Assembly: GCA_017499595.2 (NCBI GenBank) | Contig: CM039009.1 | Coordinates: 1-64,000, forward strand | Direction: 5' to 3' | Source: Psilocybe cubensis | Taxonomy: Eukaryota | Length of the DNA: 64,000 nt | Shown here: positions 1 through 22,188 of the stretch, in pieces | Numbering within the stretch: the first letter of the stretch is position 1 | Layout of the letters: every line of letters starts with the position of its first letter | Notes under the pieces: generated by a model | What the model saw: only the letters and a program-made list of their open reading frames with translations | Database searches by the model: none | Told to the model about the DNA's origin: nothing | Position numbers and translations under genes: made by a program

Positions 1-130
1 CCCTAAACCCTAAACCCTAAACCCTAAACCCTAAACCCTAAACCCTAAACCCTAAACCCTAAACCCTAAACCCTAAACCCTAAACCCTAAACCCTAAACC
101 CTAAACCCTAAACCCTAACCCTAAACCCTA
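1..130 (+). repeat. Terminal telomere (CCCTAAA)n = (TTTAGGG)n on the minus strand
   Basis: About 17 near-perfect CCCTAAA units from base 1, C-rich strand 5'->3', as expected at a left chromosome end. Confidence 0.97.
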
Positions 131-723
131 AACCTAAACCTAAACCCTAAACCCTAAACCCTAAGCCCTAACCTAACCCCAACCCTAAGCTAACTAAGTC
201 TAACCTTAGTAGGAAGTAAGGTAGGCGTGTGAACTTCCGAAAGGCATGTGATTGTGAAGGGCCGGATCTAATTTAGTACATGGGAAAAGTTACTTAGTAC
301 CTCGGGAAAAGTTCCTTAGTACCGTGGAAACATTTTTGATGGACCGGATCATGAACTGTCCAATTAAGATTCACAACAATCAATCAATTGATTGTTAGGT
401 AAGGACCCAGGTAAGCTATTTATACTCTTGACATGAGAATATTCCCATGTCACGGTTACTCGGAGCCACGTAACCAGAGTATTTTATATCCATGTGATTC
501 ACATCACAGTCAATAACCCACGATGTCAAAGAACAAAAGTGTTGGATCCACTTTTGACAGGTTACCATGTGCCACATCGACCCGTGACACTCTGTTCATC
601 AGAGATCTGTCTAACTTGACAATAAACATTGACAGATTTGTGATAGTCGGTAAGATACATGACAGCTGCGCAGCATCACTTCACGCGCTGTCATCGGATG
701 TTCCAGAACATTCCTTCTAAGAA

Positions 724-1719
724 TAGCCACTGAAGAGTCTATAAAGACGAAAGGGCTGGCTGCTGATAACAATCAACAGCCCTCAAGTACTCGTCCTCTC
801 CCAAACTCCTGCCGCTTGTGCCTTCCCAACTCATCCGGGAGCCCTTTCGTCACTGATCTTGCCCTTGACTCGGGGACGTTTCATCGACATGTTGGCTGCC
901 TCACGGCAAGCGGGGCCCTTTTTCTTTCACTCGCTCACGCCTTCTATGTTGGGTTACGGAGGTCATACAAACTCGTTTTAGTCTAGCTGCGGGGTTATCC
1001 AGCTATGATGACTTTGTAATTCGAGGGCGCGCAGTTCTTCAATGGGTATGGACATCAGGTGAGAGTACACTGGGGGTTGTCAGGACCAGCTCTGCTGGAT
1101 ACGCTCCTGGCAAGTCGGTTGCAGCCGGCGACACTACCGAATTGCTGGGACGTCCTAAAGCTTGTGGGTACCGCCGACCGCTGGAAACAGCCTAGGCACC
1201 GGTGGCGACCGGGTATGGTAACAATCCCCAAGATTCAGCGAAAGCTGGAATGGATAATCAGCAGCGAATCCGTAACGGTCACGCCGACGGAAGCGTTCAA
1301 CGACTAGGTGGTAGTGGGGTCTTCGGATCTTAAGATATAGTCTTGGGAGTGGGGAAACCCACATCTGGTATCTAAACCGCGCCTCGCTGCTTACGAGGAC
1401 GGCCCGAAGTCCAGAACCGCTTAAAACGCGGGTGACCCGGCCTCCCCTTAGTAAAGGGAGTTAACACAAGGATGGACAAATAGTTCGTCGCCGGAAATGA
1501 ACCTGTGGCTGTAATGGCTGATGTGGCGCCCCTTGGTAAAGGGCTTAAAGGGTATTAGCCTGCCATGTCCAATGGCATGAGAGTGTCCCTTGGTAAAGGA
1601 CTTAATAGGCAATAGCCTGTTCTTTTGTCATGAGCGGTATGTAGTGATCGTTTGCCTGTACGGTAGCGCCCATTGCTTGCACTGGTCCACGCCCGTAAAA
1701 AATCACGAGCCGCTGGCCT
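724..1719 (+). ncRNA. Hammerhead ribozyme split by a group I intron (exon parts 724-783 and 1713-1719)
   Basis: tagcca-CTGAAGA-gtct(ataa)agac-GAAA-gggctg...cagcccT | 929-nt insert | Ctggc. Joining the exons gives the same sequence as the intact copy at 6064-6130. Confidence 0.9.
784..1712 (+). ncRNA. Group I self-splicing intron, IC1-like, 929 nt
   Basis: 5' exon ends in U783 and the intron ends in G1712. P1: acagcccU-ca (776-785) pairs tgGgggttgt (1071-1080) with a U783.G1073 wobble, extended by gtactc/gagtac. P aattgctggg 1140-1149; Q aatcagcagc 1256-1265; R gttcaacgacta 1295-1306; S aagatatagtc 1332-1342. P3 cactacc/ggtagtg; P7 gacta/tagtc; P8 with UUCG loop; P9 gtggg-GAAA-cccac; P5abc with a GAAA loop. 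Confidence 0.93.
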
Positions 1720-1824
1720 TCTTTCCATTTAACTCACAGTTTAAACAAGTCGCTCGCACCTCGCTTCGCTCGGTGCTCGCTCCCCCCCTAAACCCAACGA
1801 CTTTGCTATTACCCAACAGCTACT

Positions 1825-2980
1825 ATGTCTTCCACTTACTCTGCTGCCTTCTCTCGTGCCATGTCCCCCACCCTGGACGCACTCACCCAGGCTGTCGTCA
1901 ACAACACAGTTTTTGGCGTCAACGACGAAGCTGGCCGCCACAACGCCCTCATCGACGAGTTGGCCACTGTCGTCATCAAGAAAATAGCTGAGTGCCGCTC
2001 CATTGACCAGATTGTAGACTGCGTCTTTTTTGACTATCGTGCTGCCCTTAGGGAGTTTCTCCTCAACCTCGCATCGTGGTGCGATAAGAGGGAAACAGTC
2101 AAGGCTAGCCTCGAGCGCCTTGAACTTGCCGTTAGCGCAGGCAACACCCCCAATCGCCTTCGGGTGAAGGCTCCCGAGTTCCAACTTACGAAGGAATTCG
2201 CGGATGCCGGGTCAGCGGAAGCTCTTCGAGTTTCCTCTACGTTCTCCACCGCTCGTGATGTCTTCCAAAAGGCAATCAACGACGGCGCCATTCAGGCGAA
2301 AAAGGACGAACTGGCCTTTTGGGATGATAAATGCGCACTCAATAACTGTTATGAAGCTGCTGCCCTCATCGTTAAGACAACTTACGATGATCGCAAATCC
2401 AGCTATAAGCTCCCCGTTTTCTCTACAGACAACAAGGGAGTTCGTCGAATAACAGATTGGGTAGTGTCACCGCAGAAGAAGGCTGAATGCAGCGCATTGC
2501 AAACCATTTTGCCAGCCATCTTCTCTCATATCAAACAGATTGTCAACTTGCGCCACCGCGCTTTGGCAATCAAGATTGAGAAAAAGCGGTCGACTGCGGC
2601 AACAGCCGATGTCGAGATGGCCGATGCGACCAAACCAGGTCCATCGATTCAATCCCTTATTGATAAGGGCTTGAATGCACGTCTCAAGAAGCTCAACCTT
2701 GGATCTGTGGGCAAGAAGGCAAGTTCTCGTAACCCTTCACCCATAATTCTGGATACTAATTACTATTCTAACTACCCAGACTTTGTCTGGCCAGAATTCG
2801 TCCAAGGCTCCTCAACCTCAGGCCAAGAAAGCTGGCCCTTCGAAATTCAAACCCTCGTCGACGCCTTCGCAGAAGAAGCCCCAAACCAAGGCTTCCAACA
2901 AGGTCGACAACAAGAAGAAAGGGAAGGGGAGAGCTCCCGTCAAGAACGATCCAAAGGGAAAGGGAAAGGCAAGAGCCTAG
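1825..2980 (+). CDS. Predicted spliced ORF1 (join 1825-2718, 2780-2980), ~364 aa with a Lys-rich C-terminus
   Basis: Removing the 61-nt GC-AG intron joins codon 298 in frame to TLSGQNSSKAPQPQAKK...KGKGKARA*. Confidence 0.7.
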
Positions 2981-5355
2981 ACGCGCGGTCTAATGTAGTA
3001 CCTTTTACGTCGGTAAGACCCGCCTTCCCCAACTCTATTCCTGACGATATACTCACCATGACTAAAACAGACGCAGTTTCTTTTGTACACTTACATACGC
3101 CGATCTCATTCTTGTTGGCTGGCCAGTATCGTAGTAGTGTACACTGTAGTCCTGGTGTGGTGGTCCCTGTAGATATAGCAAATGATTTGTCACTCGGACT
3201 CAATTATATGTTTTTTACTCTACCTTCTCAAAGTCTGATCATGCAAGCATGGAATGATTTTCAACGAAGAATAAGATGGCGTATCTATTTTTTGTTTAAG
3301 GAAGGCATGAACAAACCTTTTGATCCAGATTACGGAGTAAGCTCAAAAAAGAAAGAGAAACCTCCAGTATTACCGCAATACATGGAACTTGGCCTTTCGA
3401 TGGGACGTCGGTACGTGCAACGCACGATCGCAAGTATCCCGGAAGAAGCCCTTACGGAGATGCGAAAGCACGCGTTCTCTCCTAAAAGGGACAAGATCCG
3501 TAAGTTTCTTATCGATAACAACTATGTTATTACGATGACAGATAAGAATCTTGGCCTCGCGGTGTCTGAACGCGACTGGATATTAAGGAATGAGCTCAAT
3601 CTTCTTGAAGATGAACGTAACTATGAAGAGTTAGAATTCGAAGTTGCGCAAGAAGTAATGAAGAGCAAAATGATCCAGATGCAAACTCTTGCACGTACCG
3701 TCGAAGATGAACATCTGTTTCTATTTGAACTTGGGTTGTCTCGATTCTTTCTATCGAATGTACCGGAAGACGGATCATCGTTCAAGTATCCTCAATTTCA
3801 TGGTATACCTAAAATCCACAAAAAACCTACTGGATTTAGGCCCATAATTCCGTGTCACTCTGTAGTATTTAATCCTGCAGCCAAGTTTGTATCAAAAGAG
3901 CTTAAGCCGATTATTAAATCGACTCCTTCAATCATTCACGGAACGAAGGATCTCTTTACGAGATTAAGCCAATTGCGTATAGACCCCAAACGACAATGGT
4001 ATTTTGTCACCGGGGATGTAGTTGCTTTCTATCCCAATATTCCGTTGGACTTGTGCATCGAAATCGTTTGTAATATGTACGAGGAATGGTTACTCAACGC
4101 TTCGGAAGAAAACACTGCATTAGCCCATATTAATCCAAATTCGTTAGAGAATAACTTGGTTAAATTGGGCATCTTTAAACGTGCTATCGAGATTGGCAAT
4201 ACGCAATTGATAACACAACATGGGTCTAGATATTTTAGACAAAAAAATGGCCTCGCAATGGGCGTCGCGGATTCTCCGGACCTTGCTAACCTCTTTGGAG
4301 CCCATTTTGAAATAAAATCAAAAATCTTAGACCACCCAAACGTGGCCTTCTATGGAAGGTACATCGACGATTGTTTCGCAATTGTTTACGCCGAGTCCGA
4401 AGCACTTGCACTTAATCTTATTAAAGAAACAATAAAGTTCGATGGTTGTGTTATCGAATGGGCTGTTTCCTCGTCGGGATGTCAATTTCTCGATGCTTTC
4501 ATATTCAAGGAGTCTGGAAAACTTCATTGGAAGCCATTTGTCAAGACAGGAAACAACCGAGAACGAGTTCCATGGGTATCACATCATCCTTTGGACGTCA
4601 AACGTGGCGTCTACATTGGAGAGTTATCCAGGTTAGCCGTGCTATGTAGTACCAAGGAAATCTACATCGGAGCAATTAGAGACCTTAACGCTCTCTATTT
4701 GATGCGCGGTTATCCCGAAAACCTAGTCATGTCTTGGTGTAAGAAGAATATACAAGAACGTTGGGAAAAGCGATTCGCTTTACGAGTCGCAGAGCACGAC
4801 GAATCCATTCTTGTACTTAAAACCAGATTTGATCAGGTATGGAATTGGTTTTCAGCTGCTGAACTTGGAAAAACTGTTACCGAGTACTGGTCGGCATGGT
4901 ATGAACATGCCGAGAAAGGTTTGTATAGTGCAGACTCGTCCAGACCCCTTATCAAACCAGATCCAAATTACGTTCACGACCTCGATGATGTTCGCCCGGA
5001 GCTGTTCACACAGATCCTCGTGGACGGAGAAACTGAGTTCGTACCGGATTTGAGGAAGATAGGACTACTCGGAAGTCGTTGGATAGTATCGCGAAAACGC
5101 AATACTAATCTTTTCGACCTTGCAAATGTGTGGAAGAAAACAGTCTTTCGTAAACTGGATGAAGACATCGCTGAAAAAGGTGGTGTTGTTCCCGAAACTC
5201 AAAACGTTAATGAAACTTATCATTCTGCTTTAGTTGAAGCTGCTGAACAGATAAGTATCGAAAGTGATAACGAGATAATACTTCATAGACGTTCAATCTC
5301 ACAAGAGAGGGAACATCCAGAATTCGGCAGAATATCCAAATCTTACAACCGATGA
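1825..5355 (+). CDS. Penelope-like reverse transcriptase polyprotein (ORF1 region plus RT, no endonuclease), 1176 aa
   Basis: Motifs TDKNLG, GIPKIHK..FRPII, VTGDVVAFYPNIP, QKNGLAMG..SP.LANLF, YGRYIDD, QFLD and the thumb SHHP..VKRG..GELSRL. No GIY-YIG motif follows. Confidence 0.95.
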   Translation: MSSTYSAAFSRAMSPTLDALTQAVVNNTVFGVNDEAGRHNALIDELATVVIKKIAECRSIDQIVDCVFFDYRAALREFLLNLASWCDKRETVKASLERLELAVSAGNTPNRLRVKAPEFQLTKEFADAGSAEALRVSSTFSTARDVFQKAINDGAIQAKKDELAFWDDKCALNNCYEAAALIVKTTYDDRKSSYKLPVFSTDNKGVRRITDWVVSPQKKAECSALQTILPAIFSHIKQIVNLRHRALAIKIEKKRSTAATADVEMADATKPGPSIQSLIDKGLNARLKKLNLGSVGKKASSRNPSPIILDTNYYSNYPDFVWPEFVQGSSTSGQESWPFEIQTLVDAFAEEAPNQGFQQGRQQEEREGESSRQERSKGKGKGKSLDARSNVVPFTSVRPAFPNSIPDDILTMTKTDAVSFVHLHTPISFLLAGQYRSSVHCSPGVVVPVDIANDLSLGLNYMFFTLPSQSLIMQAWNDFQRRIRWRIYFLFKEGMNKPFDPDYGVSSKKKEKPPVLPQYMELGLSMGRRYVQRTIASIPEEALTEMRKHAFSPKRDKIRKFLIDNNYVITMTDKNLGLAVSERDWILRNELNLLEDERNYEELEFEVAQEVMKSKMIQMQTLARTVEDEHLFLFELGLSRFFLSNVPEDGSSFKYPQFHGIPKIHKKPTGFRPIIPCHSVVFNPAAKFVSKELKPIIKSTPSIIHGTKDLFTRLSQLRIDPKRQWYFVTGDVVAFYPNIPLDLCIEIVCNMYEEWLLNASEENTALAHINPNSLENNLVKLGIFKRAIEIGNTQLITQHGSRYFRQKNGLAMGVADSPDLANLFGAHFEIKSKILDHPNVAFYGRYIDDCFAIVYAESEALALNLIKETIKFDGCVIEWAVSSSGCQFLDAFIFKESGKLHWKPFVKTGNNRERVPWVSHHPLDVKRGVYIGELSRLAVLCSTKEIYIGAIRDLNALYLMRGYPENLVMSWCKKNIQERWEKRFALRVAEHDESILVLKTRFDQVWNWFSAAELGKTVTEYWSAWYEHAEKGLYSADSSRPLIKPDPNYVHDLDDVRPELFTQILVDGETEFVPDLRKIGLLGSRWIVSRKRNTNLFDLANVWKKTVFRKLDEDIAEKGGVVPETQNVNETYHSALVEAAEQISIESDNEIILHRRSISQEREHPEFGRISKSYNR
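2719..2779 (+). other. Putative spliceosomal GC-AG intron within the PLE ORF (also 7924-7984 and 17511-17571)
   Basis: AAG|GCAAGT donor, CTAAC/CTAAT branch-like motif, CCAG acceptor, 61 nt long. Conserved in all three full copies. Confidence 0.72.
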
Positions 5356-6063
5356 AAAGAATACTAGCGCGTAAGGCGTAAAGCATTAGAAAAAAACCCT
5401 AACCGTAAGTATTCCTTGCTACAAAGTAACAAACATCTACTTACAAGCAACACATTGGATTAAATAGCTAAACCTAAACCTAAACCCTAAACCCTAAACC
5501 CTAAGCCCTAACCTAACCCCAACCCTAAGCTAACTAAGTCTAACCTTAGTAGGAAGTAAGGTAGGCGTGTGAACTTCCGAAAGGCATGTGATTGTGAAGG
5601 GCCGGATCTAATTTAGTACATGGGAAAAGTTACTTAGTACCTCGGGAAAAGTTCCTTAGTACCGTGGAAACATTTTTGATGGACCGGATCATGAACTGTC
5701 CAATTAAGATTCACAACAATCAATCAATTGATTGTTAGGTAAGGACCCAGGTAAGCTATTTATACTCTTGACATGAGAATATTCCCATGTCACGGTTACT
5801 CGGAGCCACGTAACCAGAGTATTTTATATCCATGTGATTCACATCACAGTCAATAACCCACGATGTCAAAGAACAAAAGTGTTGGATCCACTTTTGACAG
5901 GTTACCATGTGCCACATCGACCCGTGACACTCTGTTCATCAGAGATCTGTCTAACTTGACAATAAACATTGACAGATTTGTGATAGTCGGTAAGATACAT
6001 GACAGCTGCGCAGCATCACTTCACGCGCTGTCATCGGATGTTCCAGAACATTCCTTCTAAGAA

Positions 6064-6130
6064 TAGCCACTGAAGAGTCTATAAAGACGAAAGGGCTGGC
6101 TGCTGATAACAATCAACAGCCCTCTGGCCT
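6064..6130 (+). ncRNA. Type I hammerhead ribozyme, intact; predicted cleavage after C6124
   Basis: Stem I gcca/tggc, core CTGAAGA, stem II gtct/agac, GAAA, stem III gggctg/cagccc, CUC cleavage triplet. Confidence 0.92.
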
Positions 6131-6196
6131 TCTTTCCATTTAACTCACAGTTTAAACAAGTCGCTCGCACCTCGCTTCGCTCGGTGCTCGCTCCCA

Positions 6197-6283
6197 CCCT
6201 AACCCTAAACCCTAAACCCTAAACCCTAAACCCTAAACCCTAAACCCCCTAAAAACCCTAAACCCTAAACCCTAAACCCTAAC
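6197..6283 (+). repeat. Interstitial telomeric tract between PLE units
   Basis: CCCTAAA repeats with irregular units (ccccctaaaaa). Confidence 0.9.
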
Positions 6284-6858
6284 CTAACCCCAACCCTAAC
6301 CTAACCCCAACCCTAAGCTAACTAAGTCTAACCTTAGTAGGAAGTAAGGTAGGCGTGTGAACTTCCGAACGGCATGTGATTGTGAAGGGCCGGATCTAAT
6401 TTAGTACATGGGAAAAGTTACTTAGTACTTCGGGAAAAGTTCCTTAGTACCGTGGAAACATTTTTGATGGACCGGATCATGAACTGTCCAATTAAGATTC
6501 ACAACAATCAATCATTCTATTGTTTGATTGTTAGGTAAGGACCCAGGTAAGTTATTTATACTCTAGACATGTGAATATTCCCATGTCGCGGTTACTCGGA
6601 GCCACGTAACCAGAGTAATCTATATCCATGTGATTCACATCACAGTCAATAACCCACGATGTCAAAGAACAAAAGTGTTGGATCCACTTTTGACAGGTTA
6701 CCATGTGCCACATCGACCCGTGACACTCTGTTCATCAGAGACCTGTCTAACTTGACAATAAACATTGACAGATTTGTGATAGTCGGTAAGATACATGACA
6801 GCTGCGCAGCATCACTTCACGCGCTGTCATCGGATGTCTAGAACATTCCTTCTAAGAA

Positions 6859-6925
6859 TAGCCACTGAAGAGTCTATAAAGACGAAAGGGCTGGTTGTTG
6901 GGATCCCCCAACAGCCCTCTGGCTA
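6859..6925 (+). ncRNA. Type I hammerhead ribozyme, intact; cleavage after C6919
   Basis: 6-bp stem I tagcca/tggcta with the full core. Confidence 0.93.
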
Positions 6926-7029
6926 CTTTCCATTTAACTCCCAGTTTAAACTAGTCGCTCGCACCTCGCTTCGCTCGGTGCTCGCTCCCCCCCTAAACCC
7001 AACGACTTTGCTATTATCCATCAGCCACT

Positions 7030-10000
7030 ATGTCATCTCAATACTCTGCTGCTTTCTCTCGTGCCATGTCCCCCACCCTGGACGCACTCACCCAGGCCGT
7101 CGTCAACAACACCGTTTTCGGCGTCAACGATGAAGCAGGCCGCCATAACGCTCTGATCGACGAGCTGGCCACTGTGGTCATCAAAAAAATAGCTGAGTGC
7201 CGCTCCGTTGACCAAGTCATAGACTGCGTCTTTTTTGACTATCGTGCTGCCCTTAGGGAGTTTCTCCTCAACCTCGCATCGTGGTGCGATAAGAGGGAAA
7301 CAGTCAAGGCTAGCCTCGAGCGCCTTGAATCTGCCGTTAGCGCAGGCAACACGCCCAATCGCCTTAAGGTGAAGGCACCCGAGTTCCAACTTACGAAGGA
7401 ATTCGCGGATGCCGGGTCAGCGGAGGCTCTTCGAGTCTCCACTACGTTCTCTACCGCTCGTGACGCCTTCCAAAAGGCAATTAACGACGGCGCCATTCAG
7501 GCGAAAAAGGACGAGCTGACTTTTTGGGATGATAAATGCGCACTCAACTCTTGCTACGAAGCTGCTGCCCTCATCGTTAAGGCAACTTACGATGATCGCA
7601 AATCCAGCTACAAGCTCCCTGTTTTCTCTACAGATAACAAGGGAGTTCGACGTATAGCAGAGTGGGTAGTGTCTCCGCAAAAGAAAGCCGAATGCAGTGC
7701 GCTGCAAACCATACTGCCGGCGATCTTTTCTCACATCAAACAAATTGTCAACATGCGCCACCGCGCTTTGGCAATTAAGATTGAGAAAAAGCGGACGACT
7801 GCGGCAACAGCCGATGTCGAGATGGCCGACGCGACCAAACCAGGTCCGTCGATTCAATCCCTTATTGATAAGGGCTTGAATGCACGTCTCAAGAAGCTCA
7901 ACCTTGGATCTGTGGGCAAGAAGGCAAGTTTTCGTAACCCTTCACCCATAATTCTGGATACTAATTACTACTCTAATTACCCAGACTTTGTCTGGCCAGA
8001 ATTCGTCCAAGGCTCCTCAACCTCAGGCCAAGAAAGCTGGCCCTTCGAAACCCAAGTCGTCGTCGACGCCTTCGCAACGCAAGCCTCAAACCAAGGCTTC
8101 CAACAAGGTCGACAACAAGAAGAAAGGGAAGGGGAGAGCTCCCGTCAAGAACGATCCAAAGGGAAAGGGAAAGGCAAGAGCCTAGATGCGCGGTCTAATG
8201 TAGTACCTTTTACGTCGGTGAGACCCGCCTTCCCCAACTCTATTCCTGACGATATACTCACCATGACTAAAACAGACGCAGTTTCTTTCGTACACTTACA
8301 TACTCCAATATCATTCTTGTTGGCTGGCCAGTATCGTAGTAGTGTACATTGTAGTCCTGGTGTTTCTGTCCCTGTTGATGTAGCAAACGATCTCTCTCTC
8401 GGACTTAATTATATGTTTTTCACTCTGCCTTCTAAAAGTCTGATCATGCAAGCATGGAATGATTTCCAACGAAGAATAAGATGGCGTATCTATTTTTTGT
8501 TTAAGGAAGGCATGAATAAACCTTTTGATCCAGATTATGGAGTAAGCTCAAAAAAGAAAGAGAAACCTCCTGTATTACCGCAATATATGGAACTTGGCCT
8601 TTCGATGGGACGTCGGTACGTGCAACGCACGATCGCAAGTATCCCGGAAGAAGCCCTTACGGAGATGCGAAAGCACGCGTTCTCTCCTAAAAGGGACAAG
8701 ATCCGTAAGTTTCTTATCGATAACAACTATGTTATTACGATGACAGATAAGAATCTTGGCCTCGCGGTGTCTGAACGCGACTGGATATTAAGGAATGAGC
8801 TCAATCTTCTTGAAGATGAACGTAATTACGAAGAGTTAGAATTCGAAGTTGCGCAAGAAGTTATGAAGAGCAAAATGATTCAGATGCAAACGCTCGCACG
8901 TACTGTCGAAGATGAACATCTGTTTCTATTTGAACTTGGGTTGTCTCGATTCTTTCTATCGAATGTACCGGAAGACGGATCATCGTTCAAGTATCCTCAA
9001 TTTCATGGTATACCTAAAATCCACAAGAAACCTACTGGATTTAGGCCCATAATTCCGTGTCACTCTGTAGTATTTAATCCTGCAGCCAAGTTTGTATCAA
9101 AAGAGCTTAAGCCGATTATTAAATCGACTCCTTCAATCATACACGGAACGAAGGATCTCTTTACGAGATTAAGCCAATTGCGTATAGACTCCAAAAGACA
9201 ATGGTATTTTGTCACTGGAGATGTAGTTGCTTTCTATCCCAATATTCCGTTGGACTTGTGCATCGAAATCGTTTGTAGTATGTACGAGGAATGGTTACTC
9301 AACGCTTCGGAAGAAAACACTGCATTAGCCCATATTAATCCAAATTCGTTAGAGAATAACTTGGTTAAATTGGGCATCTTTAAACGTGCTATCGAGATTG
9401 GCAATACGCAATTGATAACACAACATGGGTCTAGATATTTTAGACAAAAAAATGGCCTCGCAATGGGCGTCGCGGATTCTCCGGACCTTGCTAACCTCTT
9501 TGGAGCCCATTTTGAAATAAAGTCAAAAATCTTAGACCACCCAAACGTGGCCTTCTATGGAAGGTACATCGACGATTGTTTCGCAATTGTTTACGCCGAG
9601 TCCGAAGCACTTGCACTTAATCTTATTAAAGAAACAATAAAGTTCGATGGTTGTGTTATCGAATGGGCTGTTTCCTCGTCGGGATGTCAATTTCTCGATG
9701 CTTTCATATTCAAGGAGTCTGGAAAACTTCATTGGAAGCCTTTTGTCAAGACAGGAAACAACCGAGAACGAGTTCCATGGGTATCACATCATCCTTTGGA
9801 CGTCAAACGTGGCGTCTACATTGGAGAGTTATCCAGGTTAGCCGTGCTATGTAGTACCAAGGAAATCTACATCGGAGCAATTAGAGACCTTAACGCTCTC
9901 TATTTGATGCACGGTTATCCCGAAAACCTAGTCATATCTTGGTGTAAGAAGAATATACAAGAACGTTGGGAAAAGCGATTCGCTTTACGAGTCGCAGAGC

Positions 10001-10560
10001 ACGACGAATCCATTCTTGTACTTAAAACCAGATTTGATCAGGTATGGAATTGGTTTTCAGCTGCTGAACTTGGAAAAACTGTTACCGAGTACTGGTCGGC
10101 ATGGTATGAACATGCCGAGAAAGGTTTGTATAGTGCAGACTCGTCCAGACCCCTTATCAAACCAGATCCAAATTACGTTCACGACCTCGATGATGTTCGC
10201 CCGGAGCTGTTCACACAGATCCTCGTGGACGGAGAAACTGAGTTCGTACCGGATTTGAGGAAGATAGGACTACTCGGAAGTCGTTGGATAGTATCGCGAA
10301 AACGCAATACTAATCTTTTCGACCTTGCAAATGTGTGGAAGAAAACAGTCTTTCGTAAACTGGATGAAGACATCGCTGAAAAAGGTGGTGTTGTTCCCGA
10401 AACTCAAAACGTTAATGAAACTTATCATTCTGCTTTAGTTGAAGCTGCTGAGCAGATAAGTATCGAAAGTGATAACGAGATAATACTTCATAGACGTTCA
10501 ATCTCACAAGAGAGGGAACATCCAGAATTTGGCAGAATATCCAAATCTTACAACCGATGA
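7030..10560 (+). CDS. Penelope-like RT polyprotein, copy B, 1176 aa
   Basis: Same RT motifs as copy A; uninterrupted ORF. Confidence 0.95.
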   Translation: MSSQYSAAFSRAMSPTLDALTQAVVNNTVFGVNDEAGRHNALIDELATVVIKKIAECRSVDQVIDCVFFDYRAALREFLLNLASWCDKRETVKASLERLESAVSAGNTPNRLKVKAPEFQLTKEFADAGSAEALRVSTTFSTARDAFQKAINDGAIQAKKDELTFWDDKCALNSCYEAAALIVKATYDDRKSSYKLPVFSTDNKGVRRIAEWVVSPQKKAECSALQTILPAIFSHIKQIVNMRHRALAIKIEKKRTTAATADVEMADATKPGPSIQSLIDKGLNARLKKLNLGSVGKKASFRNPSPIILDTNYYSNYPDFVWPEFVQGSSTSGQESWPFETQVVVDAFATQASNQGFQQGRQQEEREGESSRQERSKGKGKGKSLDARSNVVPFTSVRPAFPNSIPDDILTMTKTDAVSFVHLHTPISFLLAGQYRSSVHCSPGVSVPVDVANDLSLGLNYMFFTLPSKSLIMQAWNDFQRRIRWRIYFLFKEGMNKPFDPDYGVSSKKKEKPPVLPQYMELGLSMGRRYVQRTIASIPEEALTEMRKHAFSPKRDKIRKFLIDNNYVITMTDKNLGLAVSERDWILRNELNLLEDERNYEELEFEVAQEVMKSKMIQMQTLARTVEDEHLFLFELGLSRFFLSNVPEDGSSFKYPQFHGIPKIHKKPTGFRPIIPCHSVVFNPAAKFVSKELKPIIKSTPSIIHGTKDLFTRLSQLRIDSKRQWYFVTGDVVAFYPNIPLDLCIEIVCSMYEEWLLNASEENTALAHINPNSLENNLVKLGIFKRAIEIGNTQLITQHGSRYFRQKNGLAMGVADSPDLANLFGAHFEIKSKILDHPNVAFYGRYIDDCFAIVYAESEALALNLIKETIKFDGCVIEWAVSSSGCQFLDAFIFKESGKLHWKPFVKTGNNRERVPWVSHHPLDVKRGVYIGELSRLAVLCSTKEIYIGAIRDLNALYLMHGYPENLVISWCKKNIQERWEKRFALRVAEHDESILVLKTRFDQVWNWFSAAELGKTVTEYWSAWYEHAEKGLYSADSSRPLIKPDPNYVHDLDDVRPELFTQILVDGETEFVPDLRKIGLLGSRWIVSRKRNTNLFDLANVWKKTVFRKLDEDIAEKGGVVPETQNVNETYHSALVEAAEQISIESDNEIILHRRSISQEREHPEFGRISKSYNR

Positions 10561-11276
10561 AAAGAATACTAGCGCTTAAGGCGTAAAGCATTAGAAAAAA
10601 AACCCTAACCGTAAGTATTCCTTGCTATAAAGTAACAAACATCTACTTACAAGCAACACATTGGATTGAATAGCTAAACCTAAACCTAAACCCTAAACCC
10701 TAAACCCTAAACCCTAACCTAACCCCAACCCTAAGCTAACTAAGTCTAACCTTAGTAGGAAGTAAGGTAGGCGTGTGAACTTCCGAACGGCATGTGATTG
10801 TGAAGGGCCGGATCTAATTTAGTACATGGGAAAAGTTACTTAGTACTTCGGGAAAAGTTCCTTAGTACCGTGGAAACATTTTTGATGGACCGGATCATGA
10901 ACTGTCCAATTAAGATTCACAACAATCAATCATTCTATTGTTTGATTGTTAGGTAAGGACCCAGGTAAGTTATTTATACTCTAGACATGTGAATATTCCC
11001 ATGTCGCGGTTACTCGGAGCCACGTAACCAGAGTAATCTATATCCATGTGATTCACATCACAGTCAATAACCCACGATGTCAAAGAACAAAAGTGTTGGA
11101 TCCACTTTTGACAGGTTACCATGTGCCACATCGACCCGTGACACTCTGTTCATCAGAGACCTGTCTAACTTGACAATAAACATTGACAGATTTGTGATAG
11201 TCGGTAAGATACATGACAGCTGCGCAGCATCACTTCACGCGCTGTCATCGGATGTCTAGAACATTCCTTCTAAGAA

Positions 11277-11343
11277 TAGCCACTGAAGAGTCTATAAAGA
11301 CGAAAGGGCTGGTTGTTGGGATCCCCCAACAGCCCTCTGGCTA
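11277..11343 (+). ncRNA. Type I hammerhead ribozyme, intact
   Basis: Matches 6859-6925. Confidence 0.92.
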
Positions 11344-11408
11344 CTTTCCATTTAACTCCCAGTTTAAACTAGTCGCTCGCACCTCGCTTCGCTCGGTGCT
11401 CGCTCCCC

Positions 11409-11446: not shown

Positions 11447-14073
11447 GCGACTGGATATTAAGGAATGAGCTCAATCTTCTTGAAGATGAACGTAACTATG
11501 AAGAGTTAGAATTCGAAGTTGCGCAAGAAGTAATGAAGAGCAAAATGATCCAGATGCAAACTCTTGCACGTACCGTCGAAGATGAACATCTGTTTCTATT
11601 TGAACTTGGGTTGTCTCGATTCTTTCTATCGAATGTACCGGAAGACGGATCATCGTTCAAGTATCCTCAATTTCATGGTATACCTAAAATCCACAAGAAA
11701 CCTACTGGATTTAGGCCCATAATTCCGTGTCACTCTGTAGTATTTAATCCTGCAGCCAAGTTTGTATCAAAAGAGCTTAAGCCGATTATTAAATCGACTC
11801 CTTCAATCATTCACGGAACGAAGGATCTCTTTACGAGATTAAGCCAATTGCGTATAGACCCCAAACGACAATGGTATTTTGTCACCGGGGATGTAGTTGC
11901 TTTCTATCCCAATATTCCGTTGGACTTGTGCATCGAAATCGTTTGTAGTATGTACGAGGAATGGTTACTCAATGCTTCGGAAGAAAACACTGCATTAGCC
12001 CATATTAATCCAAATTCGTTAGAGAATAACTTGGTTAAATTGGGCATCTTTAAACGTGCTATCGAGATTGGCAATACGCAATTGATAACACAACATGGGT
12101 CTAGATATTTTAGACAAAAAAATGGCCTCGCAATGGGCGTCGCGGATTCTCCGGACCTTGCTAACCTCTTTGGAGCCCATTTTGAAATAAAGTCAAAAAT
12201 CTTAGACCACCCTAATGTGGCCTTCTATGGAAGGTACATCGACGATTGTTTTGCAATTGTTTACGCCGAGTCCGAAGCACTTGCACTTAATTTAATTAAA
12301 GAAACAATAAAGTTCGATGGTTGTGTTATCGAATGGGCTGTTTCCTCGTCGGGATGTCAATTTCTCGATGCTTTCATATTCAAGGAGTCTGGAAAACTTC
12401 ATTGGAAGCCTTTTGTCAAGACAGGAAACAACCGAGAACGAGTTCCATGGGTATCACATCATCCTTTAGACGTCAAACGTGGCGTTTACATTGGAGAGTT
12501 ATCCAGGTTAGCCGTGCTATGTAGTACCAAGGAAATCTACATTGGAGCAATTAGAGACCTTAACGCTCTCTATTTGATGCGCGGTTATCCCGAAAACCTA
12601 GTCATGTCTTGGTGTAAGAAGAATATACAAGAACGTTGGGAAAAGCGATTCGCTTTACGAATCGCAGAGCACGACGAATCCATTCTTGTACTTAAAACCA
12701 GGTTTGATCAGGTATGGAATTGGTTTTCAGCTGCTGAACTTGGAAAAACTGTTACCGAGTACTGGTCGGCATGGTATGAACATGCCGAGAAAGGTCTGTA
12801 TAGTGTAGACTCGTCCAGACCCCTTATCAAACCAGATCCAAATTACGTTCACGACCTCGATGATGTTCGCCCGGAGCTGTTCACACAGATCCTCGTGGAC
12901 GGAGAAACTGAGTTCGTACCGGATTTGAGGAAGATAGGACTACTCGGAAGTCGTTGGATAGTATCGCGAAAGCGCAATACTAATCTTTTCGACCTTGCAA
13001 ATGTGTGGAAGAAAACAGTTTTTCGTAAACTGGATGAAGACATTGCCGAAAAAGGTGGTGTTGTTCCCGAAACTCAAAACGTTAATGAAACTTATCATTC
13101 TGCTCTAGTTGAAGCTGCTGAACAGATAAGTATCGAAAGCGATAACGAGATAATACTTCATAGACGTTCAATCTCACAAGAGAGGGAACATCCAGAATTC
13201 GGCAGAATATCCAAATCTTACAACCGATGAAAAGAATACTAGCGCTTAAGGCGTAAAGCATTAGAAAAAAACCCTAACCGTAAGTATTCATTGCTATAAA
13301 GTAACAAACATCTACTTACAAGCAACACATTGGATTAAATAGCTAAACCTAAACCTAAACCCTAAACCCTAAGCCCTAACCTAACCCCAACCCTAAGCTA
13401 ACTAAGTCTAACCTTAGTAGGAAGTAAGGTAGGCGTGTGAACTTCCGAACGGCATGTGATTGTGAAGGGCCGGATCTAATTTAGTACATGGGAAAAGTTA
13501 CTTAGTACTTCGGGAAAAGTTCCTTAGTACCGTGGAAACATTTTTGATGGACCGGATCATGAACTGTCCAATTAAGATTCACAACAATCAATCAATTGAT
13601 TGTTAGGTAAGGACCCAGGTAAGCTATTTATACTCTTGACATGTGAATATTCCCATGTCGCGGTTACTCGGAGCCACGTAACCAGAGTAATCTATATCCA
13701 TGTGATTCACATCACAGTCAATAACCCACGATGTCAAAGAACAAAAGTGTTGGATCCACTTTTGACAGGTTACCATGTGCCACATTGACCCGTGACACTC
13801 TGTTCATCAGAGACCTGTCTAACTTGACAATAAACATTGACAGATTTGTGATAGTCGGTAAGATACATGACAGCTGCACAGCATCACTTCACGCGCTGTC
13901 ATCGGATGTCTAGAACATTCCTTCTAAGAATAGCCACTGAAGAGTCTATAAAGACGAAAGGGCTGGTTGTTGGTACCCCCCAACAGCCCTCTGGCCTTCT
14001 TTCCATTTAACTCACAGTTTAAACAAGTCGCTCGCACCTCGCTTCGCTCGGTGCTCGCTCCCCCCCTAAACCC
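11446..14073 (+). mobile_element. PLE copy C, 5'-truncated (RT core to 13230, 3' UTR, terminal repeat)
   Basis: Starts within the ORF at the RDWILRN codons. The residual ORF 11533-13230 keeps YIDD. Confidence 0.9.
13931..13997 (+). ncRNA. Type I hammerhead ribozyme, intact
   Basis: Same core; distal stem III variant ttgg/ccaa. Confidence 0.9.
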
Positions 14074-14105: not shown

Positions 14106-14200
14106 CCCCCCAACAGCCCTCTGGCTTCTTTCCATTTTAACTCCCAGTTTAAACTAGTCGCTCGCACCTCGCTTCGCTCGGTGCTCGCTCCCCCCCTAAA
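14106..14200 (+). mobile_element. Mini PLE 3'-end fragment (~95 bp) between telomeric tracts
   Basis: cccccaacagccctc^tggc...gctcgctccccccctaaa only. Confidence 0.85.
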
Positions 14201-14925
14201 CCTAAACCCTAAACCCTAAACCCTAAGCCCTAACCTAACCCCAACCCTAAGCTAACTAAGTCTAACCTTAGTAGGAAGTAAGGTAGGCGTGTGAACTTCC
14301 GAACGGCATGTGATTGTGAAGGGCCGGATCTAATTTAGTACATGGGAAAAGTTACTTAGTACCTCGGGAAAAGTTCCTTAGTACCGTGGAAACATTTTTG
14401 ATGGACCAGATCATGAACTGTCCAATTAAGATTCACAACAATCAATCAATTGATTGTTAGGTAAAGACCCAGGTAAGCTATTTATACTCTAGACATGTGA
14501 ATATTCCCATGTCGCAGTTACTTGGAGCCACGTAACCAGAGTACTCTATATCCATGTGATTCACATCACAGTCAATAACCCACGATGTCAAAGAACAAAA
14601 GTGTTGGATCCATTTTTGACAGGTTACCATGTGCCACACTGACCCGTGACACTCTGTTCATCAGAGACCTGTCTAACTTGACAATAAACATTGACAGATT
14701 TGTGATAGTCGGTAAGATACATGACAGCTGCGCAGCATCACTTCACGCGCTGTCATCGGATGTCTAGAACATTCCTTCTAAGAATAGCCACTGAAGAGTC
14801 TATAAAGACGAAAGGGCTGGTTGTTGGGATCCCCCAACAGCCCTCTGGCTTCTTTCCATTTTAACTCCCAGTTTAAACTAGTCGCTCGCACCTCGCTTCG
14901 CTCGGTGCTCGCTCCCCCCCTAAAC
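14197..14925 (+). mobile_element. Solo terminal repeat (5'-truncated PLE) with an intact hammerhead at 14785-14851
   Basis: Repeat unit without ORF; begins at the element's internal telomere-like tract. Confidence 0.87.
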
Positions 14926-15576
14926 CTAAACCCTAAACCCTAAACCCTAAGCCCTAACCTAACCCCAACCCTAAGCTAACTAAGTCTAACCTTAGTAGGA
15001 AGTAAGGTAGGCGTGTGAACTTCCGAACGGCATGTGATTGTGAAGGGCCGGATCTAATTTAGTACATGGGAAAAGTTACTTAGTACCTCGGGAAAAGTTC
15101 CTTAGTACCGTGGAAACATTTTTGATGGACCGGATCATGAACTGTCCAATTAAGATTCACAACAATCAATCATTCTATTTTTTGATTGTTAGGTAAGGAC
15201 CCAGGTAAGCTATTTATACTCTTGACATGAGAATATTCCCATGTCGCGGTTACTCGGAGCCATGTAACCAGAGTATTCTATATCCATGTGATTCACATCA
15301 CAGTCAATAACCCACGATGTCAAAGAACAAAAGTGTTGGATCCACTTTTGACAGGTTACCATGTGCCACATCGACCCGTGACACTCTGTTCATCAGAAAC
15401 CTGTCTAACTTGACAATAAACATTGACAGATTTGTGATAGTCGGTAAGATACATGACAGCTGCGCAGCATCACTTCACGCGCTGTCATCGGATGTCTAGA
15501 ACATTCCTTCTAAGAATAGCCACTGAAGAGTCTATAAAGACGAAAGGGCTGGCCGTTTGTACCCCCAAACAGCCCT

Positions 15577-16505
15577 CAAGTACTCGTCCTCTCCCAAACT
15601 CCTGCCGCTTGTGCCTTCCCAACTCATCCGGGAGCCCTTTCGTCACTGATCTTGCCCTTGACTCGGGGACGTTTCATCGACATGTTGGCTGCCTCACGGC
15701 AAGCGGGGCCCTTTTTCTTTCACTCGCTCACGCCTTCTATGTTGGGTTACGGAGGTCATACAAACTCGTTTTAGTCTAGCTGCGGGGATATCCAGCTATG
15801 ATGACTTTGTAATTCGAGGGCGCGCAGTTCTTCAATGGGTATGGACATCAGGTGAGAGTACACTGGGGGTTGTCAGGACCAGCTCTGCTGGATACGCTCC
15901 TGGCAAGTCGGTTGCAGCCGGCGACACTACCGAATTGCTGGGACGTCCTAAAGCTTGTGGGTACCGCCGACCGCTGGAAACAGCCTAGGCACCGGTGGCG
16001 ACCGGGTATGGTAACAATCCCCAAGATTCAGCGAAAGCTGGAATGGATAATCAGCAGCGAATCCGTAACGGTCACGCCGACGGAAGCGTTCAACGACTAG
16101 GTGGTAGTGGGGTCTTCGGATCTTAAGATATAGTCTTGGGAGTGGGGAAACCCACATCTGGTATCTAAACCGCGCCTCGCTGCTTACGAGGACGGCCCGA
16201 AGTCCAGAACCGCTTAAAACGCGGGTGACCCGGCCTCCCCTTAGTAAAGGGAGTTAACACAAGGATGGACAAATAGTTCGTCGCCGGAAATGAACCTGTG
16301 GCTGTAATGGCTGATGTGGCGCCCCTTGGTAAAGGGCTTAAAGGGTATTAGCCTGCCATGTCCAATGGCATGAGAGTGTCCCTTGGTAAAGGACTTAATA
16401 GGCAATAGCCTGCTCTTTTGTCATGAGCGGTATGTAGTGATCGTTTGCCTGTACGGTAGCGCCCATTGCTTGCACTGGTCCACGCCCGTAAAAAATCACG
16501 AGCCG
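15577..16505 (+). ncRNA. Group I intron, second copy, 929 nt, splitting the hammerhead that starts at 15517
   Basis: cagcccT|caagtac...gagccG|ctggc. Nearly identical to 784-1712 (two substitutions noticed by eye). Confidence 0.93.
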
Positions 16506-16616
16506 CTGGCTTCTTTCCATTTAACTCACAGTTTAAACAAGTCGCTCGCACCTCGCTTCGCTCGGTGCTCGCTCCCACCCTAAACCACTCGACTTTGCTA
16601 TTACCCAACAGCTACT

Positions 16617-19600
16617 ATGTCTTCCACTTACTCTGCTGCCTTCTCTCGTGCCATGTCCCCCACCCTGGACGCACTCACCCAGGCTGTCGTCAACAATACA
16701 GTCTTTGGCGTCAACGACGAAGCTGGCCGCCACAACGCCCTCATCGACGAGTTGGCCACTGTCGTCATCAAAAAAATAGCTGAGTGCCGCTCCATTGACC
16801 AGATCGTAGACTGCGTCTTTTTTGACTATCGTGCTGCCCTTAGGGAGTTTCTCCTCAACCTCGCATCGTGGTGCGACAAGAGGGAAACAGTCAAGGCTAG
16901 CCTTGAGCGCCTTGAACTTGCCGTTAGCGCAGGCAACACCCCCAATCGCCTTCGGGTGAAGGCTCCCGAGTTCCAACTCACGAAGGAATTCACGGATGCC
17001 GGGTCAGCGGAGGCTCTTCGAGTCTCCTCTACGTTCTCCACCGCTCGTGACGTCTTCCAAAAGGCGATTAACGACGGCGCCATCCAGGCGAAAAAGGACG
17101 AACTGGCCTTTTGGGATGATAAATGCGCACTCAATAACTGTTATGAAGCTGCTGCCCTCATCGTTAAGACAACTTACGATGATCGCAAATCCAGCTATAA
17201 GCTCCCCGTTTTCTCTACAGACAACAAGGGAGTTCGTCGAATAACAGATTGGATAGTGTCACCGCAGAAGAAGGCTGAATGCAGCGCATTGCAAACCATT
17301 TTGCCAGCCATCTTCTCTCATATCAAACAGATTGTCAACTTGCGCCACCGCGCTTTGGCAATCAAGATTGAGAAAAAGCGGTCGACTGCGGCAACAGCCG
17401 ATGTCGAGATGGCCGATGCGACCAAACCAGGTCCATCGATTCAATCCCTTATTGATAAGGGCTTGAATGCACGTCTCAAGAAGCTCAACCTTGGATCTGT
17501 GGGCAAGAAGGCAAGTTCTCGTAACCCTTCACCCATAATTTTGGATACTAATTACTATTCTAATTACCCAGACTTTGTCTGGCCAGAATTCGTCCAAGGC
17601 TCCTCAACCTCAGGCCAAGAAAGCTGGCCCTTCGAAACCCAAGTCCTCGTCGACGCCTTCGCAGAGGAAGCCCCAAACCAAGGCTTCCAACAAGGTCGAC
17701 AACAAGAAGAAAGGGAAGGGGAGAGCTCCCGTCAAGAACAATCCAAAGGGAAAGGGAAAGGCAAGAGCCTAGACGCGCGGTCTAATGTAGTACCTTTTAC
17801 GTCGGTAAGACCCGCCTTCCCCAACTCTATTCCTGACGATATACTCACCATGACTAAAACAGACGCAGTTTCTTTTGTACACTTACATACGCCGATCTCA
17901 TTCTTGTTGGCTGGCCAGTATCGTAGTAGTGTACATTGTAGTCCTGGTGTGGTGGTCCCTGTAGATATAGCAAATGATTTGTCGCTCGGACTCAATTATA
18001 TGTTTTTTACTCTGCCTTCTCAAAGTCTGATCATGCAAGCATGGAACGATTTTCAACGAAGAATAAGATGGCGTATCTATTTTTTGTTTAAGGAAGGCAT
18101 GAACAAACCTTTTGATCCAGATTATGGAGTAAGCTCTAAGAAAAAGGAGAAACCTCCAGTATTACCGCAATATATGGAACTTGGCCTTTCGATGGGACGT
18201 CGGTACGTGCAACGCACGATCGCAAGTATCCCGGAAGAAGCCCTTACGGAGATGCGAAAGCACGCGTTCTCTCCTAAAAGGGACAAGATCCGTAAGTTTC
18301 TTATCGATAACAACTATGTTATTACGATGACAGATAAGAATCTTGGCCTCGCGGTGTCTGAACGCGACTGGATATTAAGGAATGAGCTCAATCTTCTTGA
18401 AGATGAACGTAACTACGAAGAGTTAGAATTTGAAGTTGCGCAAGAAGTTATGAAGAGCAAAATGATCCAGATGCAAACTCTCGCACATACCGTCGAAGAT
18501 GAACATCTGTTTCTTTATGAACTTGGGTTGTCTCGATTCTTTCTATCGAATATACCGGAAGACGGATCATCGTTCAAGTATCCTCAATTTCATGGTATAC
18601 CTAAAATCCACAAGAAACCTACTGGATTTAGGCCCATAATTCCGTGTCACTCTGTAGTATTTAATCCTGCAGCCAAGTTCGTATCAAAAGAGCTTAAGCC
18701 GATTATTAAATCGACTCCTTCAATCATACACGGAACGAAGGATCTCTTTACGAGATTAAGCCAATTGCGTATAGACTCCAAAAGACAATGGTATTTTGTC
18801 ACTGGAGATGTAGTTGCTTTCTATCCCAATATCCCGTTGGACTCGTGCATCGAAATCGTTTGTAGTATGTACGAGGAATGGTTACTCAACACTTCGGAAG
18901 AAAACACTGCATTAGCCCATATTAAGCCAAATTCGTTAGAGAATAACTTGATTAAATTGGGCATCTTTAAACGTGCTATCGAGATTGGCAATACGCAATT
19001 GATAACACAACATGGGTCTAGATATTTTAGACAAAAAAATGGCCTCGCAATGGGCGTCGCGGATTCTCCGGACCTTGCTAACCTCTTTGGAGCCCATTTT
19101 GAAATAAAGTCAAAAATCTTAGACCACCCAAACGTGGCCTTCTACGGAAGGTACATCGACGATTGTTTCGCAATTGTTTACGCCGAGTCCGAAACACTTG
19201 CACTTAATCTTATTAAAGAAACAATAAAGTTCGATGGTTGTGTTATCGAATGGGCTGTTTCCTCGTCGGGATGTCAATTTCTCGATGCTTTCATATTCAA
19301 GGAGTCTGGAAAACTTCATTGGAAGCCATTTGTCAAGACAGGAAACAACCGAGAACGAGTTCCATGGGTATCACATCATCCTTTGGACGTCAAACGTGGC
19401 GTTTACATTGGAGAGTTATCCAGGTTAGCCGTGCTATGTAGTACCAAGGAAATCTACATCGGAGCAATTAGAGACCTTAACGCTCTCTATTTGATGCGCG
19501 GTTATCCCGAAAACCTAGTCATGTCTTGGTGTAAGAAGAATATACAAGAACGTTGGGAAAAGCGATTTGCTTTACGAGTCGCAGAGCACGACGAATCCAT

Positions 19601-20147: not shown

Positions 20148-20856
20148 AAAGAATACTAGCGCGTAAGGCGTAAAGCATTAGAAAAAAACCCTAACCGTAA
20201 GTATTCCTTGCTATAAAGTAACAAACATCTACTTACAAGCAACACATTGGATTGAATAGCTAAACCTAAACCCTAAACCCTAAACCCTAAGCCCTAACCT
20301 AACCCCAACCCTAAGCTAACTAAGTCTAACCTTAGTAGGAAGTAAGGTAGGCGTGTGAACTTCCGAACGGCATGTGATTGTGAAGGGCCGGATCTAATTT
20401 AGTACATGGGAAAAGTTACTTAGTACCTCGGGAAAAGTTCCTTAGTACCGTGGAAACATTTTTGATGGACCGGATCATGAACTGTCCAATTAAGATTCAC
20501 AACAATCAATCATTCTATTTTTTGATTGTTAGGTAAGGACCCAGGTAAGCTATTTATACTCTTGACATGAGAATATTCCCATGTCGCGGTTACTCGGAGC
20601 CATGTAACCAGAGTATTCTATATCCATGTGATTCACATCACAGTCAATAACCCACGATGTCAAAGAACAAAAGTGTTGGATCCACTTTTGACAGGTTACC
20701 ATGTGCCACATCGACCCGTGACACTCTGTTCATCAGAAACCTGTCTAACTTGACAATAAACATTGACAGATTTGTGATAGTCGGTAAGATACATGACAGC
20801 TGCGCAGCATCACTTCACGCGCTGTCATCGGATGTCTAGAACATTCCTTCTAAGAA

Positions 20857-20923
20857 TAGCCACTGAAGAGTCTATAAAGACGAAAGGGCTGGCCGTTTGT
20901 ACCCCCAAACAGCCCTCTGGCTT
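20857..20923 (+). ncRNA. Type I hammerhead ribozyme, intact
   Basis: Full core; distal stem III tttg/caaa. Confidence 0.9.
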
Positions 20924-21017
20924 CTTTCCATTTAACTCACAGTTTAAACAAGTCGCTCGCACCTCGCTTCGCTCGGTGCTCGCTCCCACCCTAAACCCTA
21001 AAACCCTAAACCCTAAA

Positions 21018-22043: not shown

Positions 22044-22065
22044 TAAACCCTAAACCCTAAAAACT

Positions 22066-22188
22066 AACAGCCCTCTGGCTTCTTTCCATTTTAACTCCCA
22101 GTTTAAACTAGTCGCTCGCACCTCGCTTCGCTCGGTGCTCGCTCCCCCCCTAAACCCTAAACCCTAAACCCTAAACCCTAAACCCTAA
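22066..22188 (+). mobile_element. Most proximal mini PLE 3' fragment plus the last telomeric tract (22148-22188)
   Basis: aacagccctctggc...gctccccccctaaa(ccctaaa)n, followed by unique DNA. Confidence 0.85.

Follow-up and report, generated by a model that had tools for sequence, protein, structure and literature searches.

A group I intron nested in the predicted upstream hammerhead of telomeric Penelope-like elements in Psilocybe cubensis

How can a retroelement keep an intron in one of its two terminal repeats and lack it in the other, when the repeats are otherwise identical? The question is raised by the left end of contig CM039009.1 in the Psilocybe cubensis assembly GCA_017499595.2, of which we analyzed positions 1 to 64,000 of the forward strand (from here on, the window). 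Positions 1-22190 form a chromosome end, where a (CCCTAA)n telomere tract is followed by a head-to-tail array, ~22 kb long, of a single retroelement family whose architecture fits that of Penelope-like retrotransposons. Short telomere tracts separate the copies of the array, which ends at position 22188 with unique DNA beyond. Three copies—A (128-6195), B and F—are full-length, each with one open reading frame (ORF) of 1176 codons. Here, we describe a 929-nucleotide (nt) group I intron that interrupts the upstream (5') repeat of copies A and F within a hammerhead ribozyme motif and is missing from their downstream (3') repeats, and we weigh how this asymmetry may be passed on.

The insert, the paired repeats and the hammerhead

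Each full-length copy is bounded by a direct repeat of ~730 nt, composed of an upstream part (R1, ~655 nt) and a downstream part (R2, ~72 nt) that ends in ccctaaaccc. In copy A, the 5' repeat (128-783 plus 1713-1784) is split by an insert at 784-1712, while the 3' repeat (5468-6195) is free of it; the 3' repeats of both A and F have the exact ligated-exon, intron-less form. Paired repeats of one copy (A5/A3, B5/B3 and F5/F3) showed 0 substitutions over 670-677 aligned nt, as against 10-31 substitutions between copies. These results bear out a first-pass annotation of the bare sequence, which had described an intron kept in the 5' and lacking in the 3' repeat of the same element in A and F, and two matching intron-less repeats in B. 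The same annotation had called the variants common to paired repeats private to their copies; the identity within copies held up, but gatgttccagaac (copy A) and ggccgtttgtacc (copy F) recur in the truncated copy G.

The insert is present in two of the nine full repeats in the window, namely A5 and F5. The remaining seven—B5, the 3' repeats of A, B, C, F and G, and the solo repeat D—lack it. Within the window, the 5'-only pattern amounts to 2/3 versus 0/6 (Fisher p = 0.083), so that data from outside were needed to judge it.

What kind of intron is this? The only Rfam matches in the 64 kb were two, both to RF00028 (group I intron; 73.0 and 70.9 bits, gathering score 50). On these grounds, a spliceosomal view of the insert was rejected. 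Comparison with the intron-less repeat placed the boundaries at ...AGCCCT/CAAG...GAGCCG/CTGGCC (slashes mark junctions), that is, an exon end ACAGCCCU with U as its last nucleotide and an intron with a terminal G, with a 1-nt sliding ambiguity in these boundaries. An internal guide sequence directly 5' of P2, ~290 nt from the 5' splice site, could pair with the exon end to form an 8-bp P1; an 8-bp match arose by chance in 25 of 20000 shuffles within the 20 nt before P2, and in 489 of 20000 anywhere in the first 450 nt. When five introns from the window and related loci (see below) were aligned and folded with RNAalifold, 30 of the 70 predicted pairs, including ones in P3, P8 and P9, were found to keep pairing after changes on both sides; in P3, four of six pairs had changed on both sides and none was broken. 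Because P3, P8 and P9 are kept via compensatory change, the five aligned introns look like ribozymes under selection rather than relics. No frame longer than 108 codons lies inside the intron, scans of six of its frames (59-108 codons) returned neither a Pfam match nor an endonuclease ORF, and a second ribozyme within the intron, such as GIR1, was sought to an E-value of 1 and not found. Judged by its sequence, the 929-nt insert belongs to the group I introns, lacks a homing-endonuclease gene and presumably splices itself.

This intron sits inside a second ribozyme motif. The R1/R2 border carries the parts of a type-I hammerhead in order: AGCCA (helix I), CUGAAGA, G-UC-UAUAAA-GA-C (helix II), GAA, helix III from A15.1 to U16.1, and C17/UGGCC, with the slash at the predicted cut. 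The core (CUGAAGA...GAAA...U-C/) is invariant in 9/9 repeats. The tip of helix III varies among copies (A; B and D; C; F and G) and folds in each, and the minimum-energy fold was a three-way junction in two of the three variants tried. The hammerhead assignment, for which we rely on the motif together with long-helix-III variants described from fungi (excerpts of PMC4209133), is real at the motif level.

The intron lies between U16.1 and C17, one nucleotide ahead of the hammerhead cleavage site, and its presence puts C17 and helix I 929 nt away from the rest of the hammerhead. Since pairing of the guide sequence would occupy the 3' strand of helix III, P1 and the hammerhead are predicted to be mutually exclusive. 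With that strand sequestered and C17 and helix I 929 nt off, the 5' hammerhead would form only after splicing. In copies A and F, the predicted 3' hammerhead is always whole and the 5' one only conditional; the motifs would cleave, and the intron may act as a switch on the upstream one.

Two further features of the introns came to light. The exon end recurs inside the intron as GAGCCCT (840-846), a copy that could also pair with the guide sequence, and the first intron of a related locus (L072) has a comparable internal site, TTTTGCT, opposite GGCAAAA before P2; such copies may serve as alternative or circularisation sites. Separately, in a 933-nt contig of X1, a run guessed to be DNA, the last 13 intron nt (1700-1712, terminal G included) are joined directly to intron nt 15 (window position 798), and the 14 nt skipped end in CCU. 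This joint looks like a truncated intron circle junction or a head-to-tail intron copy and, if real DNA, would be a reverse-transcribed circle.

Related elements and the inheritance of the asymmetry

Is the intron confined to 5' ends elsewhere? We drew on 80 related loci, found in metagenome contigs by a scan based on 16 aligned related proteins. Group I introns are present in four of them—L072 (with two), L070, L052 and L064—and all lie on the coding strand between the 5' hammerhead and the ORF. The L072 introns score 76.5 and 72.8 bits against RF00028; those of L070, L052 and L064 reach 39.6, 34.2 and 31.6 bits, below the gathering score, with E-values from 1e-6 to 2.6e-4. A fifth locus, L079, has a 5'-truncated intron remnant. 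An nhmmer search of the 80 loci with a profile of five intron cores found no intron beyond L052, L064, L070 and L072. At the 3' ends of related loci there are 26 hammerheads, and no intron comes after any of them. With window and loci combined, introns come after 5 of the 33 5' hammerheads and after none of the 31 3' ones (Fisher p = 0.031; p = 0.057 when 3' sites are restricted to those trailed by 400 nt of sequence or more), in keeping with the expectation voiced in the first-pass annotation that intron-bearing repeats are not equally frequent at 3' ends. In L072 and L079, both ends of one element are visible and the intron is on the 5' side only.

The introns of these relatives occupy several sites. 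Insertion points fall at -1 in the window, at an inferred ~+4 in L052, at ~+13 in L072 (intron 1) and L079, beyond the conserved R2 hairpin motif in L064 and near the ORF start in L072 (intron 2). L052 and L064 have introns on opposite sides of the R2 hairpin, and their reverse transcriptase (RT) cores are 95% identical. The boundaries of L072 intron 1 (CTTCGT/C...CACG/CGCAAC) again comprise an exon U and an intron G, with a 1-nt sliding ambiguity as in the window. A guide-sequence match of 6 bp was found at the homologous place in L052 and one of only 4 bp, by eye, in L064; neither for L064 nor for the second intron of L072 did a guide sequence give a firm exon match. Thirty loci have both a 5' hammerhead motif and an ORF start; the two are 108-193 nt apart in 26 of these loci and >1000 nt apart in L052, L064, L072 and L067.

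Three of these loci have peculiarities of their own. L067 has ~1.1 kb (340-1440) between its 5' hammerhead motif and the ATG, a stretch with no match to Rfam at gathering score or to the intron profile. In L072, the second group I intron (within 8170-9130; core 8344-8657, 76.5 bits) lies just past the ATG of the element, which gives one element with two group I introns. L079 is an interstitial copy, 5'-truncated in the intron, with a ~47-bp direct duplication of host DNA on both sides (~1000-1046 and 5395-5447) and an intron-less 3' repeat.

How, then, would an intron be inherited on one side only? The reading that we favor, and consider rather probable, is that telomeric Penelope-like copies carry a group I intron nested in the 5' hammerhead, that in Psilocybe both repeats of a new copy are made from a single parental repeat, and that the intron is inherited at the 5' side alone. 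The intron would splice itself, with the 5' hammerhead blocked until then. The RT would prime on the telomere overhang at the ccctaaaccc behind an intron-free R2, and cDNA synthesis would then cover R1 and the body. The stretch of intron, leader and ORF would be copied from RNA still unspliced, passing the intron on at the 5' side, and the upstream R1 would be gained by a second pass, or a template jump, onto the same kind of R1 end, at RNA ends made by the ribozymes. This order of template use is our inference. A jump from processed to unspliced RNA, as proposed in the first-pass annotation, would not by itself render both R1 parts identical. The proposed start after R2 would be comparable to the internal initiation near the repeat–ORF junction shown for another Penelope-like element (excerpts of PMC11167929).

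We rejected a related route, in which end-to-end template jumps would capture the free excised intron. The 5' junction should then carry an additional G and the 3' junction should lack C17, contrary to the sequence observed.

Several observations weigh against the favored reading. It leaves the constant use of an intron-free repeat for the cDNA start unexplained. The repeats of L072 are 82.9% alike over 527 nt, with an ORF open over 1260 codons, and those of L039 are 97.4% alike; unless these contigs are chimeric, regeneration from one source is therefore not universal. The claim of the first-pass annotation that both repeats stem from one source accordingly has to be narrowed: it suits all three full-length window elements, but the sequences support a single source for Psilocybe and not for every relative. 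Much the same applies to its proposal of a 3' hammerhead that is always active and a 5' one that is conditional, which agrees with the split 5' and whole 3' motifs of A and F. Because the intron lies downstream of the hammerhead in L072, L064 and L079 and leaves it intact, a switch would be specific to Psilocybe and perhaps L052. The boundary of L072 intron 1 has no guide match of at least 6 bp, and Rfam scores for the hammerhead stay below threshold (RAGATH-1-hammerhead 23 bits, threshold 56.3; Hammerhead_3 19.5 bits, threshold 48.5). The element was not found in any RNA sequencing run searched. Finally, the intron is so little diverged between A and F (see below) that its separate spread would suit the data as well as constraint.

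Would the asymmetry arise if nothing were regenerated? RNA running from the 5' to the 3' repeat could be copied as is, with recent gene conversion or a very recent origin accounting for the identical repeats of the window. Such copying suits L072, where diverged repeats surround an open ORF and the intron is on the 5' side only. It also suits fragments D1 and H, whose starts (14108-14122 and 22063-22075) lie 10-14 nt upstream of the hammerhead cut, within the 3' strand of helix III; uncleaved repeat RNA therefore does serve as template, and synthesis halted in the hairpin. As a general account, we consider it improbable: the repeats of A and F differ at 17 sites, yet the pairs are identical over ~670 nt in 3/3 elements, and conversion would need to flank a 929-nt heterology without deleting or copying it. 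Unless its contig is chimeric, L072 nevertheless shows that in some lineages elements are also, or even as a rule, simply copied at full length and just inherit the asymmetry.

The intron has a divergence profile of its own. Copies A and F differ at 2/929 intron sites, compared with 17/670 in the repeats, 70/3740 in the body and 28/1500 in the adjacent 5' body (p = 2e-5, 4e-5 and 2e-4, respectively, versus the intron). Intron divergence is thus about tenfold below that of the flanks, and copy-specific helix III variants 10-30 nt from the intron imply that no flank entered with it. This profile is what one would expect if the intron were a hyperparasite, whose free RNA reverse-splices into intron-less element transcripts and is fixed there by the element's RT. 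On this view, A and F would each have gained the intron separately and recently, and site accessibility or survival would account for the 5' bias. The lack of an endonuclease ORF or Pfam domain in the intron, the different sites of related introns even for the closely similar L052 and L064, and the guide sequences that match their own exon at the homologous place in the window and in L052 all point the same way.

On the other hand, purifying selection on the ribozyme could also reduce divergence, and, since both target sites on each RNA are identical, the 5' bias needs an added assumption. Moreover, the adjacent 5' ORF haplotype is common to A and F, as vertical descent predicts: over the first 1500 nt of the ORF body, 94 sites group A and F against B, compared with 15 and 13 sites for the other two groupings. 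The haplotype of the 3' half of the ORF is not common to A and F, which indicates that the elements are mosaic and that the intron travels with the 5' half. Re-entry by reverse splicing is the main rival to regeneration from a single repeat. We hold it to be unlikely as the explanation of the window, although the two are compatible and not mutually exclusive.

Raw DNA reads of X22 gave summed depths of 1120-1500 for R1, 87-116 for the intron, 260-390 for the 5' body and 530-730 for the 3' body, and intron-less junctions predominate among them. By these depths, the intron is present in about one third of full-length 5' ends and in fewer than one tenth of repeats in that strain. Among the X22 variants listed (40 of 448), the only ones within the intron are the two A/F differences. 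Short reads cannot link the intron to its 5' or 3' context across the 650-nt R1, and, as the intron-less form also exists as DNA, read joints cannot demonstrate splicing. The intron was also found in contigs of X1, X6 and X10. Its occurrence there and in the X22 reads speaks against an assembly artefact, just as the small intron frames devoid of Pfam matches and the flanks free of co-conversion speak against DNA-level homing by an intron-encoded endonuclease; we give either explanation next to no credence.

Element class and features of the array

The closest relatives of the ORF protein are Psilocybe cubensis proteins of 98-100% identity, one of which is encoded on a 4.19-Mb contig, implying a nuclear setting. 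Its match to Pfam RVT_1 (28.2 bits, E-value 1.8e-6) is just below the cut-off of 29.6, and proteins 99% identical to it have a precomputed PF00078 assignment. A Pfam scan of the whole protein yielded 0 families at cut-off and no endonuclease, with the C-terminal 251 amino acids (aa) free of any match. Every 3' end in the array consists of R2 followed by ccctaa(n), so that the element is joined to telomere repeats via reverse-complement telomeric repeats beside the hammerhead. By this architecture, copies A and F fit published descriptions of endonuclease-less Penelope-like retrotransposons (excerpts of PMC8557442 and PMC4209133); the label Coprina-type would be a name borrowed from the literature on the same basis. 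Coordinates are collected in Table 1.

Table 1. Positions of the retroelement copies, their parts and the telomere tracts in the window.
Feature	Positions	Strand	Remarks
Terminal telomere tract (CCCTAA)n	1..135	+	Chromosome end on the left
Copy A, 5' repeat, upstream part R1	128..783	+	Degenerate telomere-like repeats at start; end holds predicted hammerhead helix I 5' strand, CUGAAGA, helix II, GAAA, helix III to U16.1
Copy A, group I intron, 929 nt	784..1712	+	U (783) ends 5' exon; G (1712) ends intron
Intron catalytic core P3-P9	987..1364	+	Rfam RF00028 match
Internal guide sequence GGGGTTGT (RNA form GGGGUUGU)	1073..1080	+	Directly 5' of P2; predicted 8-bp P1 with exon end ACAGCCCT (776-783), the hammerhead helix III 3' strand
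Copy A, 5' repeat, downstream part R2	1713..1795	+	C17, helix I 3' strand TGGCC, leader with conserved hairpin motif CTCGCTTCGCTCG, then ccctaaaccc
Copy A, ORF, 1176 aa	1825..5355	+	Predicted reverse transcriptase in middle
Copy A, 3' repeat, intron-less	5468..6195	+	Whole hammerhead motif 6065-6129; predicted cut 6124/6125
Copy B, full length, two intron-less repeats	6258..11407	+	ORF 7030-10560
Copy C, 5'-truncated within ORF	11447..14067	+	Intron-less 3' repeat
Fragment D1, intron-less	14108..14192	+	Last ~14 nt of R1 plus R2
Solo repeat D, intron-less	14195..14916	+	
Copy F, full length	14919..20987	+	Group I intron 15577-16505 in 5' repeat only; ORF 16617-20147; 3' repeat 20260-20987
Copy G, 5'-truncated	21022..22035	+	
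Fragment H	22063..22146	+	
Innermost telomere tract	22148..22188	+	

Repeats also occur in direct tandem (14890-14935), where R2-ccctaaacc passes directly into the next R1 and its telomere-like beginning, without an intervening telomere tract; the same joint (1789/1795 to 200) was seen in 27 X22 reads. A hairpin with the loop (A)CTCGCTTCGCTCG stands just before the ccc or telomere-like priming site in the window (1750-1784 and 6160-6195), L052 (1545-1575), L072 (8080-8110) and L070 (745-775), and is a candidate recognition site for the RT. Elsewhere in the window, a 721-codon frame on the plus strand (55354-57519) consists almost entirely of ankyrin repeats (Ank_2, E-value 1.8e-145), and three minus-strand frames of 205-344 codons (23574-24191, 27853-28635 and 40213-41247) have no Pfam match.

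Relation to known systems

The comparisons below draw on excerpts of the works cited. Like endonuclease-less Penelope-like elements, the present family forms telomeric head-to-tail arrays with reverse-complement telomeric repeats at the 3' end, has pseudo-LTRs (long terminal repeats) with a type-I hammerhead motif and a long helix III, and encodes a predicted RT with no endonuclease match; hammerheads are also documented for fungal Penelope-like elements (PMC4209133). Unlike the published elements, for which the literature searched mentions none, it carries a group I intron. That literature, in which co-mentions concern the GIY-YIG endonuclease, yielded no description of a Penelope-like element with a group I intron, though a mention in Gladyshev and Arkhipova 2007 or Arkhipova 2017 is possible. 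To that extent, a telomeric retrotransposon, and within it the hammerhead of the upstream repeat, is a genomic home not known for group I introns.

Penelope itself is nearest in having an intron retained in the 5' leader within a repeat of a retroelement: a 75-bp spliceosomal intron lies in its promoter/leader, spliced and unspliced RNAs coexist, and the intron is required for expression (PMC2377424). Here, the intron is instead of group I and is located inside a second ribozyme. The case is also relevant to the ways in which Penelope-like elements restore their terminal repeats and retain introns.

With the group I introns of nuclear rDNA (Tetrahymena Tth.L1925 and Didymium; PMC3679873), the intron shares the P3-P9 core, the exon-end U, the intron-terminal G, a predicted guide–exon pairing and long peripheral extensions. 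It differs from them in its host, the leader of a telomeric retrotransposon, in the ~290 nt from splice site to guide and in the absence of an endonuclease gene. All known nuclear group I introns are said to interrupt rRNA genes, and the reverse-transcription and integration step of the reverse-splicing route is stated to lack evidence (PMC3679873, PMC8395846). It is possible, though in our estimate still doubtful, that the leader of fungal telomere-building retrotransposons has become a nuclear, non-ribosomal host for group I introns, which would move between sites and lineages by reverse splicing and the element's RT and, in Psilocybe, also act as a ribozyme-in-ribozyme switch on the 5' hammerhead. 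If true, this would be the first natural case of a complete RNA-level pathway of intron mobility. Given a host RNA that is routinely reverse-transcribed, recurrence at several sites in related elements and no endonuclease, the reverse-splicing hypothesis can be put to a direct test in a fungus that grows in culture.

Retrozymes and hammerhead circular RNAs (PMC4918200; 10.64898/2026.07.22.740005) offer a parallel for the repeats, as their hammerhead-cut unit RNAs are thought to be the source from which repeats are rebuilt. They are non-coding and non-autonomous, unlike the ORF-bearing element described here, which is known from DNA alone. The nesting, in turn, recalls twin-ribozyme introns, GIR1 within GIR2, in which processing by one ribozyme likewise governs the product of the other (PMC3679873). 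There, a group I intron houses a group I-like capping ribozyme; here, a hammerhead motif houses a group I intron with no GIR1 match, and the pair would provide a natural example of one ribozyme gating another.

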